Shown: piece after piece, positions 45,223 to 57,329 of the stretch
How the letters are laid out: each line of letters starts with the position of its first letter
Numbering within the stretch: position 1 is the first letter of the stretch
Origin: a virus
Strand: one strand, 5' to 3'
Virus record (IMG/VR): IMGVR_UViG_3300013014_001174
Coordinates: 1-64,000 of that record
DNA length: 64,000 nt
Made by a program: the position numbers and the translations under genes
The notes under the pieces: generated by a model
Told to the model about the DNA's origin: nothing
Database searches by the model: none
The model's input: only the letters and a program-made list of their open reading frames with translations

Positions 45223-47283
45223 ATGGCAATAGAATTTGTGGATGATGGCGATAAAGGTAAAAAGAAAGATGGTAACACACCAGTATTAGATAACTTCAGT
45301 AAAGATTTAATTAAATTAGCAGAACAAGGAAAACTAGACCCTGTAATTGGTCGACAAAAAGAAATCCTACGTATTGCACAAGTATTATCTAGAAGAAAGA
45401 AAAATAACCCCATTATTATTGGTGAACCTGGTGCTGGTAAAACAGCGATTGTTGAGGGTCTTGCAATGATGATTCACGCTGGTGAATGTCCTAAAAACTT
45501 AGCAGATAAAAGAATTGTATCGTTAGATATAAATTCAGTTGTGGCCGGTACAAAATACCGTGGACAATTTGAAGAAAGAATGAAGGTTATTATTGAGGAG
45601 TTACAAGCAAGTCCGAATATTATAATTTTTATAGATGAAATACATACAATGGTTGGTGCAGGAAATAGTTCTGGGTCACTCGATGCCTCAAATATTTTTA
45701 AACCAGCATTATCAAGAGGTGAAATTCAATGCGTTGGTGCGACAACACTGGATGAATACAGAAAACATTTTGAAAAAGATGGCGCGTTAGAAAGAAGATT
45801 TCAAAAAATAATTGTTGACCCATCAACAAAAGAAGAGACGTTTGAAATTCTAAAACAAAGTAAAGAAAAATATGAAGAGCATCACAAAGTAAATTACACA
45901 GACGAGTCACTTTGGTTATGTGTTGAGTTAGCTGATAGATATATTACCGATCGTGAATTTCCAGATAAAGCTTTTGATATTTTAGATGAGGTTGGTTCTC
46001 GTATGCAAATTGATATTAAATTACCAGAGCATATTGAAAAACTAAAACAAGAAGCTGTAGATATTAAACAAGAAAAAGCGGATGTAATTAAAAAACAAAA
46101 ATATGAAATGGCCGCAGAATTACGTGATCGTGAAAAAAATATTCTACTTAAACTTGATGACGCAAAAAAGAAATTTGAAGAGGAATTAAAAAACAGTAAA
46201 AGAGGTATTCCAGAAGATTTAATTTATGAAGTGGTTTCAAATATGACCAAAATCCCAGTTAATAAAATTAATATCGATGAAAAAAACTCACTTGTTAATT
46301 TAGAAGAATCGCTTAATGGTTATGTAATTGGACAAGAGGAAGCGGTTAAAAAAATATCAAAGGCAATTAGAAGAAATAGAGTTGGTATTAAGGACCCAAA
46401 TAGACCAATTGGTTCATTTATATTTTTAGGATCTACCGGTGTTGGTAAAACGTTTTTAGCTAAAAAGTTAGCAAAAGAAATTTTTGGTAGTGAAGATAGT
46501 TTAATTCGTGTTGATATGTCAGAATATCAAGAAAAACACACAATCTCAAGACTTATTGGGTCACCTCCAGGATATGTTGGTCACGAAGAAGGGGGACAAT
46601 TAACCGAACAAGTGAAAAACAAACCTTATTCTGTGATTTTATTTGATGAAATAGAAAAAGCAAATAAAGACATTTTCTCAACACTACTCCAGATGTTAGA
46701 TGATGGTCATATGACTGATGGTCTTGGTAGAAAAATTAATTTCAAAAACTGTTTAATTATTATGACATCAAACATTGGTGTTAGAAAAGTGCAAGATTTT
46801 GGTTCTGGTGTTGGGTTTAAAACTAATAACAATAGTGATGCGGTACAAGAAGAATATAAAAGAGACGTTTTGAAAAAAGAATTACGTAAGTTTTTTGCCC
46901 CAGAATTTTTAAATAGAATTGATGATGTTGTTATTTTTAATTCTTTAGTAAAAGAACATATTGATAAAATAGTAAAACTTGAAATAGAAAAATTGATTGG
47001 TAGACTTAATTCTATGCGATATACGGTCTCTTATGAGGCGTCTGTAATCGATTTAATTGCAAAAGTTGGTTTTGATGAACAATATGGTGCAAGACCAATT
47101 AAACGTGCAATCCAGGATAAAATAGAAGATTTAATTTCTGAAAAGATTTTAACAAATGATGTTGTAGAAGGAAAAGAATATATGTTGTTTGTTAAAGGTG
47201 AGGGTGATGATCAAACAATAGAAATAGAGGATAGGTCAAAACCAGAACCAAAAAAACGTGGTAGAAAGAAAAAGGAGGATTAA
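45223..47283 (+). CDS. clpC: ClpC-like AAA+ chaperone lacking the N-terminal Clp-repeat domain
   Basis: Two AAA modules (GEPGAGKT, GSTGVGKT), UVR-type M domain (KYEMAAELRD), VGF ClpP-docking loop. Confidence 0.88.
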   Translation: MAIEFVDDGDKGKKKDGNTPVLDNFSKDLIKLAEQGKLDPVIGRQKEILRIAQVLSRRKKNNPIIIGEPGAGKTAIVEGLAMMIHAGECPKNLADKRIVSLDINSVVAGTKYRGQFEERMKVIIEELQASPNIIIFIDEIHTMVGAGNSSGSLDASNIFKPALSRGEIQCVGATTLDEYRKHFEKDGALERRFQKIIVDPSTKEETFEILKQSKEKYEEHHKVNYTDESLWLCVELADRYITDREFPDKAFDILDEVGSRMQIDIKLPEHIEKLKQEAVDIKQEKADVIKKQKYEMAAELRDREKNILLKLDDAKKKFEEELKNSKRGIPEDLIYEVVSNMTKIPVNKINIDEKNSLVNLEESLNGYVIGQEEAVKKISKAIRRNRVGIKDPNRPIGSFIFLGSTGVGKTFLAKKLAKEIFGSEDSLIRVDMSEYQEKHTISRLIGSPPGYVGHEEGGQLTEQVKNKPYSVILFDEIEKANKDIFSTLLQMLDDGHMTDGLGRKINFKNCLIIMTSNIGVRKVQDFGSGVGFKTNNNSDAVQEEYKRDVLKKELRKFFAPEFLNRIDDVVIFNSLVKEHIDKIVKLEIEKLIGRLNSMRYTVSYEASVIDLIAKVGFDEQYGARPIKRAIQDKIEDLISEKILTNDVVEGKEYMLFVKGEGDDQTIEIEDRSKPEPKKRGRKKKED

Positions 47284-47299: not shown

Positions 47300-48085
47300 T
47301 TAGTGTTTAGAATAACCAAGTTCCTCAATCATCAACTTACCGACTTTAATTCCGTTGTATGTGTCATCCACAACAACATATTCATTTCTTGTGTGGTAAT
47401 TATAATAACCAATTGATATATTAAAACAAGATAAACCAAAATTTTGATTTAATGGGAAAATATCCGTATAAGGATGTCTATGGTATTTGGTATCACCTGG
47501 GAAATGTTCAGTGATAAGACGACCACCAACATTAAAAAATTCCGAGTCTCTATTAAACATAGGTTTTGACATAAGATACTCGGAAATCATATTATTTTCC
47601 GGAGCATCAAATTGTATTGCGTAACCAACGTTTTCAAAAAATTTAGGATCCGCATTAAAAGACCCTTTACATCCGGTTTCTTCTGCAACAAAAAAAGCGG
47701 CCTTTAAATTTGGTAATTCTTTTAACAACTCTAAACATCCATATACACCACACTTATCATCACCACCAATACCAGTGGGTTCACCACTGTCATTATAAGC
47801 CTTTAAGGACAGTTTAATTTCTTTTTGAGCATTAGGTAACATCTCTTCTCTAACATTAATAGAATCGATTGTATGTACCGTATCTGTGTGCGCAACGACA
47901 CAGGGAAAATACTCAATATTTTCATCAGTTTGTTTTGTCGCATATATGTTATAAAAACTATCAACATAATATGTGATTTTATTTTCATCTAACCAATTGG
48001 TTATAAAATCAATGATTAAATCTTCCTGATATGTCTTTGTTGGGATTGATAAAACCTCCTTAAGTAACTCAAAATTTCTTTCCAT
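47300..48085 (-). CDS. Zn-dependent peptidase (M20/M28-like)
   Basis: AHTDTVH, GGDDKCG, AEETG, YHT..E motifs. Confidence 0.8.
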   Translation of the reverse strand: MERNFELLKEVLSIPTKTYQEDLIIDFITNWLDENKITYYVDSFYNIYATKQTDENIEYFPCVVAHTDTVHTIDSINVREEMLPNAQKEIKLSLKAYNDSGEPTGIGGDDKCGVYGCLELLKELPNLKAAFFVAEETGCKGSFNADPKFFENVGYAIQFDAPENNMISEYLMSKPMFNRDSEFFNVGGRLITEHFPGDTKYHRHPYTDIFPLNQNFGLSCFNISIGYYNYHTRNEYVVVDDTYNGIKVGKLMIEELGYSKH

Positions 48086-48113: not shown

Positions 48114-49172
48114 TTACAAAAGTTTTTTTAATATTTTTCTAATACTTTCAAATAGTTCTGGATGGTGTAACTGAAGGTTTAAGTCTTCAAGATTATCCAC
48201 AGATCTTTCTTCACGTTTATTACCACCATGTTTAAATATGTCAAAAAATAACTTACTATTTGGTTTAAAATTATGAAACATTATATCCATATTTTTTTCT
48301 GGTAATCTTATGTATTTATTAAATCCACCAATACTCATAACTTTTTCATACATTTTATTATATTCTTCATAATCAAAATTTCCAAGTTCCTCTTCAACTT
48401 CTTCCAACATCTTTTCAAGATTTCTGGTTACCTCTTTTTGAAAAGACTCATCCTCATAATCATCACACCAAGAATTATATTCTAGTTCGTTCCAGTCGCC
48501 AACACTATTATTTGAATAGTTTTCTATTAGTAATTTTAACATACCTTTTAAATCCTCGTCTTCAGCATTTAACATTTTATATAAGTTTAATAAAATATTT
48601 ACACTTGTTTGGAATTTGTAACCGTGTCGTATTTGCACAATACCAAAATTTATAAATGGGTTGTTAGTTTCACCTACTAACGTTTTTGAAATCGCCCTTT
48701 CAATACATTCTTCGTTATACCTACCGTATTCGTATATAATGTCATCACATTCGTCATCAAAATTATTTTTTAAAAATTCTGAAATTTTAGCATTATCATT
48801 ATTATCATTATTAGGGACTATTTGTAATGTTGGATTTGTTAGACTTAAAATTTTATTAGCAAGTGTGATATTTTCATCCTTAAACGAATCAATGATATAA
48901 CCCTCTTTCCAATCTTCGTCATACCTCCACCGATCAAAATCGTAACTACCATAACTAGAGTTTACGTACCTACTCCAAACCCAAATATCAGTATCATCAG
49001 TAACACCAAGAATTTCAAGAAAATCATCATCATTATCAAAGGTAATTTCAATTTTTGGCGATCTGCCTTTTGAGTATGAAACATCATATATTAGTTTGTC
49101 AGGATAAGACCATCTATTAACTTCTTCTCCTTTAGCAATTTTTTTTAAAAATTCGTATGTTTCACTTGCCAT
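48114..49172 (-). CDS. Hypothetical acidic protein
   Basis: 352-aa ORF ending FESIRKILKKLL. Confidence 0.7.
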   Translation of the reverse strand: MASETYEFLKKIAKGEEVNRWSYPDKLIYDVSYSKGRSPKIEITFDNDDDFLEILGVTDDTDIWVWSRYVNSSYGSYDFDRWRYDEDWKEGYIIDSFKDENITLANKILSLTNPTLQIVPNNDNNDNAKISEFLKNNFDDECDDIIYEYGRYNEECIERAISKTLVGETNNPFINFGIVQIRHGYKFQTSVNILLNLYKMLNAEDEDLKGMLKLLIENYSNNSVGDWNELEYNSWCDDYEDESFQKEVTRNLEKMLEEVEEELGNFDYEEYNKMYEKVMSIGGFNKYIRLPEKNMDIMFHNFKPNSKLFFDIFKHGGNKREERSVDNLEDLNLQLHHPELFESIRKILKKLL

Positions 49173-49237
49173 ATTAAATAAATATAATTATATTTGTATT
49201 TATATATAGTTCTTTGATAATAGTCATTTAGATATAT

Positions 49238-49645
49238 GGGCCTATATCGGATTTGACGGGCGTTGGTTGAATAATAGAAGCATGTCGGGACTGAATTAAT
49301 CTCGTTAAAAACTGATTCACAAAACAACTGGCAATGTGCTAAACAAAATGGAAACTCTTGGTTTACTAAGAGGTTCTGAAGTTACTGTAGCTTAAGAAGT
49401 TTACGGAAACGCGAGCCGGTTCACATACGCTCAGGAACAGAAGTGACTAAGGTGGACCAAGACTGAACCCGAAATCGAGTCTTCCATTGGTTGTTAATTT
49501 ACGATGGTGAAGAACAAATTAACTTTGTTTTTGGTCAAATTAAAACCAAATATTTTGGGGTATTAGAAAATACCAACCTAAACATGTAGTTGTCTCTTAA
49601 ACAAGACGAACCGGACGAGGGAGTCGGAGCCCTCTAGGTCCACCA
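49238..49645 (+). ncRNA. ssrA: tmRNA; predicted tag (A)GNVLNKMETLGLLRGSEVTVA* at 49330-49395
   Basis: Acceptor GGGCCTA/TAGGTCC with G3:U, 3' ACCA, GGATTTGAC 5' motif, T-stem GAGGG/CCCTC; promoter TATATTTG at 49189; terminator at about 49650-49683. Confidence 0.92.
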
Positions 49646-49698
49646 ATTAAAAAACCCACTCTTTTGAAGTGGGTTTTCTTTTTTAGGAGATATCCTAA

Positions 49699-49872
49699 TT
49701 ACTTAACAGCAGTAGTATCTTTTACTACAACAGTTGCATTAACTGTAGATTCTACAGCGGTTGCTTCTGGTGTTGCGTCAGCAGTTGCGTTTCCTGTTCC
49801 TTTTTCACCACAAGATGTCACAAGAGATAATGTCGTGAAAATTGTTAAAGAAATTAAAAATAATTTTTTCAT
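49699..49872 (-). CDS. Small Ala/Thr-rich lipoprotein (57 aa, not in ORF track)
   Basis: MKKLFLISLTIFTTLSLVTSC lipobox, tail ...VKDTTAVK. Confidence 0.65.
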   Translation of the reverse strand: MKKLFLISLTIFTTLSLVTSCGEKGTGNATADATPEATAVESTVNATVVVKDTTAVK

Positions 49873-49989
49873 TTTGAAATGGGTTTAATTAAAGTTTATT
49901 ATAATAATATATACTACATTTTTTATAAAAAGAAAAGGACAACCATAAGTTGCCCTCAAATTTTTTTTTAATAAGATCTTAAATTTTAA

Positions 49990-50840
49990 AAAAAGGTTGA
50001 GATTACACCTGTAATTGAGAATCTTTTGAAGTATTATTGTTTCCCTTCGTATCCACTTTCTTTTGGAAAGTATTTCTCAGTGACGGTCTTTTAGGTTTAC
50101 CACTCCTTGAGGTTTGAATTACTCTCATCTTACTTGACTCTTTCCGAGGTTGCCACCCCAGTTCGTCCTTGCGGGACTAAAGGTTTTTCGGATAATTACA
50201 CTCAGACTTGGGATCCTTGTGTGCAATGAACGGCTCATTACTATGTAGTCACCTTTCATCCAAACCTGACAGACACTTTTCCATTATTATTTTAGGTTTT
50301 ACATCCATATGTAATAAATGTTGTGTTGTGGATTATCAAAGTAGTGGTCTGCCAACCGAGCCAAGTCGTCTTTTGAACAACCCGATACTCAACTACTCTG
50401 TGAAATGTCCCCATCTCCATATTTCTAGACTACTTCGAGATCGAACCCTTGGTAGGGGACGGTCAAGGTTAATAACAGCACCACCTGTACGTTAACATAC
50501 CTTTCGGTTTTAAGTATCCTATGATACTGGAATACGCAATAATAAAATTGGATAACTCTATTTTTTGCATAATTCCTACGGGTTATTCCTATTGGTGTTC
50601 CCACCTCAACTAGACGACCCACATCGCCTATTCACTTAACCACTTTCCCTACAGCGTCGCCCTCGGTACTAAAGATTAAACGGTATCCCGCTTGTGTACT
50701 TGACCTCACTTTCGTAAGACGCAAATAAGTTAACACAACTTACTCACTTTATCCTGGTTTCCCAGTTTATTTTATGGACTATACACGGCCCAATATCTTT
50801 ATCAGTTTCATTACTTACTCCTGAACGGATAATCTATTTT
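49990..50840 (-). ncRNA. Large structured ncRNA, GOLLD-like (boundaries approximate)
   Basis: About 850 nt with no credible ORF; GC-richer than flanks; many GNRA-capped hairpins; own promoter (TAACTTTG at 50886-50879); ends in a T-run; near tRNAs. Family label is inference. Confidence 0.7.
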
Positions 50841-50927
50841 TTCAAAGAACGATTTCGGACGTTTCCGATTTTGTTTTACAAAGTTAAGACTTTTATTTTA
50901 ATTTGTCAAGTACTTTTTAAACTTTTT

Positions 50928-51077
50928 TTATTTTTTTTCTATAAAGACATGTTCTGTACCATATTTAGTCGCCATAATATGGGCAAATTCTAAATTTGGT
51001 GTAAAAACTTTTTGTCCTTCATTATTAACATATCCGTATATTTCAACTTCGATTACTTGTGTTTCTTGTTCTGTCAT
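50928..51077 (-). CDS. Small hypothetical protein (49 aa)
   Basis: MTEQETQVIEVEIYGY... with A-rich initiation context. Confidence 0.5.
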   Translation of the reverse strand: MTEQETQVIEVEIYGYVNNEGQKVFTPNLEFAHIMATKYGTEHVFIEKK

Positions 51078-51137
51078 TTTTGTTTGTTTTTAAATACATT
51101 ACAAACATATAATAAATATTTTGTTCTGTCAAGGAAG

Positions 51138-52214
51138 TTAAAGAATTTTTTTCATAATATCTTTAATTCGACTAATTTCTTCGTTTAATTTAAAGTCTTT
51201 TTCTTCTAAATTAATTTTAGGTTTCTTAATTTCCGAAATTTCTTTGTCGTTACTAAAAAGTTTTTCAAATTTGTTCATAAACGCTTTAAAATTTTCTAAA
51301 TCAAACTTAGTGTCACCTCCTGTTTTACTCTCAACTTTAACTTCAAATTTTTCGGCAATTGTTTTAATCTCACTTCTATTAAAATCATTTTTACCTAATT
51401 CTTTTTCAAAATAATCTAAACATTCATCTAAAGTGTTAAATGTTTTATCATTTAGTCCATCAATAAAACTTTGCGCTTCGGTGTTTGAAGTTGTTTTATT
51501 TGTGGTTATTAAATCTTTATTCTTGATTACAAGAGCAGCTAAAACAATTTTAGAAAAATTATCTTTAACACCTAATGTTCCCAATTTTTCTAAAACAGAT
51601 TTAATTATTGACTGTTCACCAGAAGAAAATGCTGTGTAAAATATTTTTTTAATTTTTGGTACTGTTTGATTTGGTGTTTGTTGTTGTGAATCTTGAGTTT
51701 CACTATCTTCAGTTGAAGAGTACTTATCGTCCGGTTTTGTATTTCTAACACCAACGTGAATGTGATCATAATGGTTAGTAACATTCCAACCAACTTGGTA
51801 TCTATAATTTCCAACATTAAAATTAATCCACTTACCATTACCTTTTTGAAGTAACTTATCTGGCATTTTATCTTCCGATATCCAACCACGTTTTACAAAC
51901 TCTTCTCTAAGTTTCTTCCAACCGTCGTCTCCTTTTTTACCACGACAAGGTAAATCAATACCATATGAATCCTTTGAGCCATCCCAGTGGTCAGACCTAT
52001 TACCAGATGCTGTTAGTCTTCTACTTCTTTTTTGTGATCCGGCATTGAATCCCAAATCTTTTAACCAGGATGCCATTTGTAACGCCCTTTCTGCAGATCC
52101 CGCCCAGTCACCATTTATCCCACCACCAAGACAAACTTTACCTTGATCAAGACATTTAGGATATGCTGAACCAACAGCAAAACCATATGTATTTGTGTTT
52201 TCAAATAAATTCAT
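51138..52214 (-). CDS. Putative Zn peptidoglycan peptidase (M15/LAS-like N-terminal domain)
   Basis: SDH...GIDL and HYDHIHVG motifs; C-terminal LNEEISRIKDIM. Confidence 0.55.
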   Translation of the reverse strand: MNLFENTNTYGFAVGSAYPKCLDQGKVCLGGGINGDWAGSAERALQMASWLKDLGFNAGSQKRSRRLTASGNRSDHWDGSKDSYGIDLPCRGKKGDDGWKKLREEFVKRGWISEDKMPDKLLQKGNGKWINFNVGNYRYQVGWNVTNHYDHIHVGVRNTKPDDKYSSTEDSETQDSQQQTPNQTVPKIKKIFYTAFSSGEQSIIKSVLEKLGTLGVKDNFSKIVLAALVIKNKDLITTNKTTSNTEAQSFIDGLNDKTFNTLDECLDYFEKELGKNDFNRSEIKTIAEKFEVKVESKTGGDTKFDLENFKAFMNKFEKLFSNDKEISEIKKPKINLEEKDFKLNEEISRIKDIMKKIL

Positions 52215-57223: not shown

Positions 57224-57329
57224 TAGTCAAAGAAGGATTCGAACCTTCACGGAATAAGTGTAATAGTTACCTTATTCCAAGGAGTTTTGAGTATTATCTC
57301 CCAGCGTCTGCCAATTCCGCCACTTGACT
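57224..57329 (-). tRNA. Atypical tRNA-Leu(CAA)-like gene with enlarged anticodon loop and long variable arm
   Basis: Leu-type D arm GCG-GAATTGGCAGA-CGC; loop ATAATACTCAAAA; 28-nt variable hairpin; canonical T arm. Confidence 0.55.

Follow-up and report, generated by a model that had tools for sequence, protein, structure and literature searches.

A free-standing GOLLD RNA with a boxA-like leader in a freshwater jumbo phage of a probable Bacteroidota host

The window analysed here, a stretch of 64,000 nucleotides of viral DNA, carries on its minus strand, from 50874 to 49994, a member of the GOLLD family that we read as expressed in the form of a free-standing non-coding RNA; we put the probability of this reading at about 0.95. 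Rfam has listed GOLLD ever since the family was described in 2009, and the three-dimensional structure was solved in 2025. The locus is a further and, as a GOLLD copy, ordinary example of a described giant phage RNA; a modest novelty lies only in its clade-specific expression leader and in the recurrence of a tmRNA gene as a neighbour.

Assignment to the GOLLD family

Scanned against Rfam 15 at curated thresholds, the window matches GOLLD (RF02032) at 50400-49994 on the minus strand, with 315.6 bits and an E-value of 1.6e-89. The gathering threshold of this family is 150 bits, and the match spans model positions 1-416 of 416, without truncation. It is the single GOLLD copy of the 78-kb record; across the window, GOLLD, tmRNA and tRNA are the only families matched at the Rfam gathering thresholds, with no ROOL, OLE, HEARO or group I/II intron.

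GOLLD RNAs consist of a conserved 3' domain, a variable single-stranded linker and a more variable 5' domain, for a length of about 700-850 nt or more (PMC12286853, PMC12990946). The same two-part plan is found here, with a 5' domain at 50791-50337, a linker at 50336-50274 and a 3' domain at 50273-49994, making a core of 798 nt. Of the 5' domain, the RF02032 model takes in no more than the last hairpin, beside the linker and the 3' domain, which leaves some 390 nt to be identified by other means; the published GOLLD alignment (Supplementary File 3, PMC12286853) is that of the Rfam 3' domain only. The 5' half was compared with the env-38 construct, the sequence of which Kretsch et al. (Nature 2025, PMC12286853) give in their supplement. 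By this comparison, made by eye on shared motifs and matched to the P1-P13 region as a whole, the construct is collinear with the window (from 50792 onwards) starting at its own first base, through both domains and the linker down to the final hairpin; about the first 420 nt of env-38 correspond to the 5' domain.

As 480 nt at the 5' side lie outside the Rfam model, which spans the 3' half only, one might still consider a giant structured RNA class unrelated to GOLLD. Yet the 3' half fits every position of the GOLLD model at twice the threshold, the 5' half runs parallel to the env-38 5' domain, and all other Rfam families stay below threshold in this stretch. We exclude a new RNA class because the RF02032 match is above threshold and both domains are collinear with env-38, and we give this alternative practically no credence. 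The preliminary description of this DNA, made from the sequence alone, had hesitated between a GOLLD member and a new giant RNA class: its first proposal stands, by the full-length match and the env-38 collinearity, and its second falls. That description had also stated that a strong GOLLD match would confirm the RNA while lowering its novelty, and the Rfam scan does both.

Fold and covariation of the core

Relatives were collected with a degenerate 31-nt pattern taken from the 3' domain, which retrieved 98 IMG/VR contigs; 81 of them align to the window over 950-1050 nt with 72-92% identity, 5' domain and promoter included. The family alignment was built from 51 representatives sharing less than 95% identity, all from IMG/VR phage contigs.

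The 798-nt core (50791-49994) has a minimum free energy of -222.5 kcal/mol, against -196.6 +/- 6.2 for dinucleotide-preserving shuffles (z = -4.2). The RNAalifold consensus of the 51 sequences holds 203 pairs, of which 116 show compensatory double changes; the high degree of structure noticed in the preliminary description is borne out, as is the covariation that it proposed to test. The 5' domain alone comprises about 23 helices and 128 pairs, and the cells of the alignment show standard pairs in 97.4% of cases, against 85.0% in column shuffles and at most 43.8% when the partners are slid. Pairs changed on both sides number 81 in this domain, versus 56 in shuffles and at most 35 in slid pairings; its covariation score is 0.445, versus 0.201 in shuffles (none of the 500 reaches 0.445) and at most 0.121 in slid pairings. 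On all five measures the 5' domain exceeds both controls. Most helices of the 3' domain covary as well.

The 5' domain (50337..50791, minus strand), which is the cap domain of the solved structure, is made of three multi-branch units, delimited by covariation and by the collinearity with env-38. By sequence and fold it holds the hairpins CTGG-GAAA-CCAG (50765-50754), CTTAC-GAAA-GTGAG (about 50718-50705), GGTG-GGAA-CACC (50605-50594) and ACC-GAAA-GGT (50508-50499), and the 3' domain, by the same means, GTCC(C)-GCAA-GGAC (50177-50165). These five hairpins, listed in the preliminary description, all lie on the minus strand where it had placed them, and nearly all their stems covary in the 51 relatives. 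Three loops, GAAA at 50761-50758, GGAA at 50601-50598 and CGCAA at 50173-50169, do not change in any of the 51 sequences, unlike their stems. The A/U-rich linker (50274..50336, minus strand; J13/15 in the published numbering), delimited from the alignment, is unpaired and of low confidence in the Rfam alignment, and forms the least conserved and most indel-rich block of the family alignment; in the solved GOLLD structure the linker is disordered and directed into the cage (PMC12286853, PMC12990946). The 3' domain (49994..50273, minus strand), or ring domain, is defined by the RF02032 match and by covariation, and ends with a P27-like hairpin, AGGU-GUAAUCUCA-ACCU.

The 5' edge of the core is formed by a short hairpin, NGGC/GUCN' (50791-50788 with 50779-50776), and the closing pair of this hairpin occurs in all four Watson-Crick forms; pair 273/288 is GC in 36, CG in 8, UA in 5 and AU in 2 of the 51 sequences. 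The loop GUGUAU (50786-50781) pairs with GUACAC (50699-50694), and this pairing, which covaries, makes a pseudoknot. Together with the leader stem lying upstream (see below), this pseudoknot is a detail beyond the published env-38 construct.

Two distant pairings were discarded. RNAalifold joins GGC at 50790-50788 to GUC at 50084-50082, with three pairs that are all invariant; we rejected this pairing because the same GGC sits in the local hairpin whose closing pair covaries four ways. The other is the long-range complement GTAGTC/GACTAC of the preliminary description. Both hexamers are present (50433-50428 and 50250-50245), and their pairing is unsupported: GACTAC is invariant in 51 of 51 sequences while its partner is GTAGTC in 26, GTAATC in 21 and another word in 4, hence no covariation, and a central A-C mismatch in half of the sequences. 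The helix in which GTAGTC does take part (50521-50512 with 50435-50426) covaries and closes a multiloop.

Transcription unit and coding potential

Upstream of the RNA, pattern and conservation point to a promoter on the minus strand (50879..50909), composed of TTGACA (50909-50904), a 17-nt spacer and the -7 box TAACTTTG (50886-50879). This box fits the Bacteroidota sigma-A -7 box TAnnTTTG, which in Flavobacterium spans -12 to -5; by this fit, transcription would start near 50874. The arrangement TTGAC-N18-TAnnTTTG is found at two places in the window, where 0.22 would be expected; the second copy precedes the upstream 49-codon ORF. The -7 box is conserved in most relatives, with TTGAC at a fixed offset of 23 nt upstream.

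On the other side, the RNA finishes with the hairpin AGGT..ACCT (50010-49994, minus strand, from sequence and fold), directly followed by a run of seven T's (49994-49988). After another 37 nt comes a second terminator-like hairpin (49957-49935), stronger than the first, then a T-rich tail, so that the candidate end signals, read from the sequence, occupy 49925..49994 on the minus strand; the predicted transcript ends at or just after 49994. The preliminary description had given this RNA a promoter of its own, which the conserved motif of Bacteroidota type supports, as well as the 3' hairpin and the T-run, which are present, and its limits (49990-50886) run almost exactly from promoter to terminator.

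The approximately 930 nt of minus strand between the 49-codon ORF (51077-50928) and a lipoprotein-like ORF (49872-49699) contain no conserved reading frame, in agreement with the earlier view that no ORF is credible there. Mechanical ORFs of 40-95 amino acids do exist on both strands, and could suggest that the region encodes one or several small proteins, the RNA structure being incidental. But each of the six small ORFs is open in only 4 to 27 of the 51 relatives, length changes break the frames in 10 to 29 of them, and the substitutions track base-pairing rather than codon positions; a coding function is therefore most improbable, and the RNA is non-coding.

Presence in metatranscriptomes

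The stretch or close relatives of it occur in lake and freshwater data sets of 15 studies and, among the runs listed, 6 are RNA libraries. We mapped on 48500-52000 the contigs of four metatranscriptomes, each of a different study and all from lakes or fresh water; being assemblies of mixed relatives, these contigs inform on presence only, and not on strand, ends or level. They cover about 50009-50839, with summed word depths of 10^2 to 10^4, and the tmRNA (49289-49640). The flanking protein genes (48500-49200, 49670-49900 and 50957-52000) have a depth of about zero, an internal contrast that is no proof of their silence and that argues against a carry-over of DNA. One contig of 435 nt matches 50009-50424 with 2 differences and enters the adapter at 50009. 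The transcript that the preliminary description had proposed to look for is thus present as RNA. GOLLD RNAs are expressed in the lytic phase (PMC12286853, PMC12990946). The leader (50840-50874) is barely covered by the RNA contigs; perhaps processing removes it, or perhaps the relatives are too different there.

These data also bear on the possibility that the RNA is no more than a long structured leader (5') or trailer (3') to a gene beside it, be it the 49-aa ORF on the upstream side or the 57-aa lipoprotein-like ORF on the downstream side. In the closest relatives the 49-aa ORF does precede the RNA by 50-160 nt, and some relatives have a small ORF downstream. Against such a dependence, a conserved promoter separates the upstream ORF from the RNA, the U-run and the second terminator come after it, the RNA contigs cover GOLLD and neither ORF, and distant relatives have other neighbour genes or tRNA-Met. 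We consider this explanation very improbable, though a little less so than the coding one, and retain the reading of a free-standing GOLLD transcript.

A leader resembling those of rRNA operons

Between the predicted start and the core lie conserved elements in the following order. The first, by fold and compensatory changes, is a 5'-terminal hairpin UCGGA-AACG-UCCGA in a boxB-like position (50855..50868, minus strand), whose stem takes in relatives the compensatory forms UCGG/CCGA, CAGG/CCUG, UUGG/CCAA and CGGG/CCUG. It is followed by a boxA-like element, GUUCUUUGAAA (50840..50850, minus strand), recognized as such by sequence likeness and position. The third is a stem with a variable tip (50792..50833, minus strand), made of AUUAUC/GAUAUU (50833-50828 with 50797-50792) and UCAG/CUGA (50824-50821 with 50805-50802). 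The same two-stem frame appears in the single-sequence folds of 49 relatives, with AAUAUC/GAUAUU, AUUAUC/GAUAAU, GAAC/GUUC and GAUCUU/AAGAUC for the outer stem, and UUGG/CCGA, UCGA/UCGA and CUCU/AGAG for the inner one. Its tip is shortest in the window (a 15-nt loop), the relatives inserting one or two extra hairpins. The cryo-EM construct of env-38 starts downstream of this whole stem.

The boxA-like word is well conserved: GTTCTTTGAAA is found in 42 of the 51 representatives, with near variants in most others, and the exact GTTCTTTGA in 37 of the 39 distinct GOLLD leaders of relatives, always 2-5 nt past a small compensating hairpin. In the window GTTCTTTGA occurs 5 times against 1.28 expected, a number reached in none of 100 shuffles; one copy is 21 nt before the tmRNA, one is in the GOLLD leader (50850-50842), two are in tRNA arrays, and one, to the detriment of the boxA reading, is inside an HNH ORF.

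In the rrn operons of Bacillus subtilis, a small 5'-terminal hairpin is directly followed by a boxA-like AUGAUCUUUGAAA that binds NusB, and the boxA consensus of Escherichia coli is UGCUCUUUAACA (PMC13753749). For Bacteroidota, the comparison was limited to three draft genomes, reached via their matches to the phage Clp ATPase. Here GTTCTTT(A/G)A occurs in rrn leaders and one spacer, in the form of GTTCTTTAA or GTTCTTTGA(CA). In Arcticibacter, GTTCTTTAA precedes the 16S gene by 171 nt, and the 16S-23S spacer holds GTTCTTTGACA. The other two genomes speak less well for the comparison: Mucilaginibacter has GTTCTTTTAA before the 16S gene, and Aquimarina has GTTCATTGA before the 16S gene, at a contig edge. 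Within this small sample, GUUCUUUGAAA is a word of the rrn type, and it is also placed as in rrn leaders, just past a promoter-proximal hairpin. Because this conserved layout of hairpin and boxA resembles that of rrn leaders, we read the GOLLD leader as a putative loading site for Nus factors, with chances that we judge about even. The word GTTCTTT(G/A)A is absent upstream of GOLLD in the huge phage LR756502 and in the Acinetobacter phage loci; the leader is therefore not family-wide.

The phage, its probable host and the neighbouring genes

The source is an IMG/VR virus record of 78 kb with a CheckV completeness of 24%; related contigs reach 304 kb. Among the products of the window are a major head protein, a portal and a large terminase; a double AAA+ ATPase of Clp type and an M20-like peptidase are encoded as well. 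The window has 12 tRNAs, the nearest 4.4 kb away from GOLLD, so that the RNA has the usual location of its family, in a phage and near tRNA genes. When 24 kb of the window were compared by megablast with a set of 50,697 phage records, nothing matched, so that this set contains no cultured phage closely related to ours. The best matches of the Clp ATPase, at 56-59% identity, come from Flavobacteriaceae, Sphingobacteriaceae, Cytophagales and Bacteroidales. The window is thus a fragment of a freshwater jumbo phage, and since the Clp matches agree with the TAnnTTTG type of the promoter, its host is probably one of the Bacteroidota.

A phage tmRNA gene (49238..49645, plus strand; Rfam 78.1 bits for a threshold of 47) is convergent with GOLLD, as a neighbour and not a part of the RNA. 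This vicinity is recurrent: a tmRNA on the opposite strand lies 154-4341 nt downstream of GOLLD in 26 of the 44 related loci whose downstream sequence reaches at least 2.5 kb, and a tmRNA so oriented is found in 20 of the 30 where it reaches at least 5 kb. In several relatives a tRNA-Met lies 12-25 nt after GOLLD or about 80-140 nt before it. This adjacency echoes the position of env-38, downstream of a tRNA-Met (PMC12286853).

Such a proximity of tRNAs, which GOLLD abuts directly in the Acinetobacter phage AM24 and in huge phages, would be expected if GOLLD were cut from a long precursor of stable RNAs by a processing of the RNase P/Z type, the promoter-like and boxA-like motifs being incidental. 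In the window, by contrast, protein genes separate GOLLD from its nearest tRNA, and a terminator follows it; moreover promoter and leader are conserved in most relatives. Processing from a precursor thus seems improbable to us, though it is the least improbable of the alternatives considered here; an RNA transcribed from its own promoter remains our reading.

Proposed assembly and role

We propose that the host RNA polymerase would start on the minus strand at the host-type promoter carried by the phage, and that the first ~80 nt, built in the style of an rRNA-operon leader with its hairpin, GUUCUUUGAAA and stem with variable tip, might recruit the host NusB/NusE antitermination machinery. The loading of Nus factors would allow the read-through of an untranslated and heavily structured RNA of ~880 nt, and could perhaps help it to fold. 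The 798-nt core (50791-49994) would then fold as two domains on a floppy A/U-rich linker, and many copies would assemble without protein into a hollow nanocage of dihedral symmetry, the 5' domains forming the caps and the 3' domains the rings, with the linker pointing inwards. By homology with env-38 (a 14-mer) and with the Streptococcus agalactiae GOLLD (a 12-mer), the window RNA should form such a cage. The number of subunits is not readable from the sequence, because among the solved GOLLDs it changes with small helix differences (PMC12990946), and the window RNA has a hairpin, ACC-GAAA-GGU, that is shorter than in env-38.

The most likely role of the cage would be to hold or sequester, during lytic growth, a cargo related to translation, i.e. 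tRNAs, ribosomes or parts of them. Encapsulation or "inhibited storage" of tRNAs or of ribosome-related cargo has been put forward (PMC12286853, PMC12990946), and the tmRNA and tRNA-Met neighbours fit these ideas without proving them; to name any specific cargo is a conjecture that we hold for doubtful. More generally, the GOLLD of Bacteroidota jumbo and huge phages might be a stand-alone "stable RNA operon" that borrows the antitermination and folding machinery of rRNA, together with a conserved convergent tmRNA module. We rate this speculative extension as unlikely; if it were true, the cage would act in the takeover of translation or in ribosome rescue, where it could serve as a store or a shield for tRNAs, tmRNA or ribosomal particles.

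Besides this mechanism, the analysis places a "lake-derived" branch of GOLLD in jumbo phages of ~300 kb with promoters of Bacteroidota type, which provides a lead to the host. About 50 diverse full-length sequences, with a strong covariation over the poorly modelled 5' domain, could serve to extend the family model, to which the extra leader stem and the 5' pseudoknot would be among the additions. The leader of hairpin and boxA-like word offers an idea of how an untranslated, heavily folded phage RNA of 880 nt could be transcribed in full length, and the recurrent pairing of GOLLD with tmRNA, like its adjacency to tRNA-Met, points to translation as the field in which to search for the cargo.

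Comparison with known systems

The leader resembles that of rRNA operons in having a promoter-proximal hairpin and, after 2-5 nt, a boxA-like word (GUUCUUUGAAA compared with AUGAUCUUUGAAA and UGCUCUUUAACA); unlike them, the window copy precedes a phage non-coding RNA and not rRNA. ROOL is likewise a large ornate RNA linked to phages, found near tRNAs and forming RNA-only cages (PMC12286853), but its sequence and fold are unrelated and it has no match in the window at the Rfam gathering threshold.

Among GOLLDs, those of the Acinetobacter phages AM24, Ab15 and YMC13/03/R2096 and of the huge phages LR745206 and LR756502 score 215-287 bits with the Rfam model, and like the window copy they are phage-borne and near tRNAs. 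The 635-kb phage LR745206 even has the same order of tRNA, hairpin, GTTCTTTGAAA and GOLLD. The Acinetobacter copies, by contrast, stand between tRNAs, without the leader, and only their 3' domain is alike at the blastn level; in AM24 the unannotated GOLLD fills the gap between tRNA-Asn and tRNA-Asp. The GOLLD of Streptococcus agalactiae, a 12-mer (PDB 9L0R) whose 3' domain alone gives a 10-mer (9LMF), belongs to the same family, with a conserved ring-forming 3' domain and a 5' domain as cap (PMC12990946). It is shorter, however, with about 700 nt and without P9, P11a-c and P21b, and comes from a Firmicutes prophage, whereas the window RNA resembles the longer env-38 type and is found in a jumbo phage of Bacteroidota type.

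The closest comparison is thus with env-38, a 14-mer nanocage by cryo-EM (PDB 9MEE; Kretsch et al., Nature 2025, PMC12286853), of the same family and the same two-domain plan, with 830 nt against 798 in the window. The collinear stretch reads AUGGCCGCUAUGGUCG...AAAUACGAAAGUAGGAUAAAGUGG in env-38 and UUGGGCCGUGUAUAGUCC...AAACUGGGAAACCAGGAUAAAGUGAG in the window RNA. Both have the invariant GAAA loop that follows the first helix, and both contain the motif GGAUAAAGUG and the hairpin UUCAAAAG. The window hairpin ACC-GAAA-GGU is shorter than that of env-38 at the matching place (...AUGGGGAAACCCCUU...). Whereas env-38 lies downstream of a tRNA-Met (PMC12286853), the window RNA has its own promoter, a leader with hairpin and boxA-like word, and a terminator; and it carries, upstream of the point where the construct starts, an extra leader stem that covaries.

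Genes around GOLLD

Convergent with GOLLD, the giant phage RNA carried on the minus strand of the window, lies a phage tmRNA (49238-49645, plus strand) matched in Rfam at 78.1 bits; ARAGORN made no call for it within the window. This tmRNA is covered by the RNA contigs assembled from four lake/freshwater metatranscriptomes, and of the 44 related loci whose sequence continues for 2.5 kb or more past GOLLD, 26 have a downstream tmRNA on the opposite strand.

The boxA-like word GTTCTTTGA, also present in the GOLLD leader, occurs five times in the window for 1.28 copies expected. One copy (49209-49217, plus strand) stands 21 nt ahead of the tmRNA; three others, on the minus strand (57913-57905, 60006-59998 and 57079-57071), fall twice within tRNA arrays and once within an HNH endonuclease ORF. 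A weak and unusually long tRNA match (106 nt; 57224-57329, minus strand; Rfam, 32.4 bits), for which ARAGORN made no call, may represent a tRNA that carries an insertion, or else a decayed copy.

Two small ORFs flank GOLLD, both on the minus strand. The upstream one (49 codons, 51077-50928) is preceded by a second copy of the Bacteroidota-type promoter pattern TTGACA-N17-TAnnTTTG (51132-51102, minus strand) and has no match in Pfam. About 14 of the closest related loci have it 50-160 nt ahead of GOLLD, an arrangement that could reflect plain synteny among close relatives, or else a linked small protein. The downstream one (57 codons, 49872-49699) has a lipoprotein-like start, a hydrophobic stretch followed by Cys, and blastn finds it on this side of GOLLD in six of the related loci.

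Further along, a Clp-type double AAA+ ATPase (45223-47283, plus strand; AAA_2, AAA_lid_9 and ClpB_D2-small), adjoined by an M20-like peptidase (47300-48085, minus strand), shares 56-59% identity with proteins of Flavobacteriaceae, Sphingobacteriaceae and other Bacteroidota, a likeness that serves as a clue to the host.

GOLLD in other phages

A tRNA-Met lies 12-25 nt past the GOLLD 3' end in the related loci L009, L017, L022, L026, L043, L050, L075 and L096, and about 80-140 nt before its estimated 5' end in L004, L006, L007, L049, L058, L072 and L077. Since the tRNA-Met gene directly abuts GOLLD, this suggests that in those phages GOLLD is co-transcribed and processed, rather than forming a separate transcription unit.

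Two Acinetobacter phage records also carry GOLLD, at 215-219 bits for the pair: Ab15 (L102, PP763259.1, 2415-2780) and AM24 (L103, KY000079.2, 2263-2631). Neither GenBank record annotates it; that of Ab15 overlays it, on the opposite strand, with two short "hypothetical protein" CDSs, which are probably spurious.
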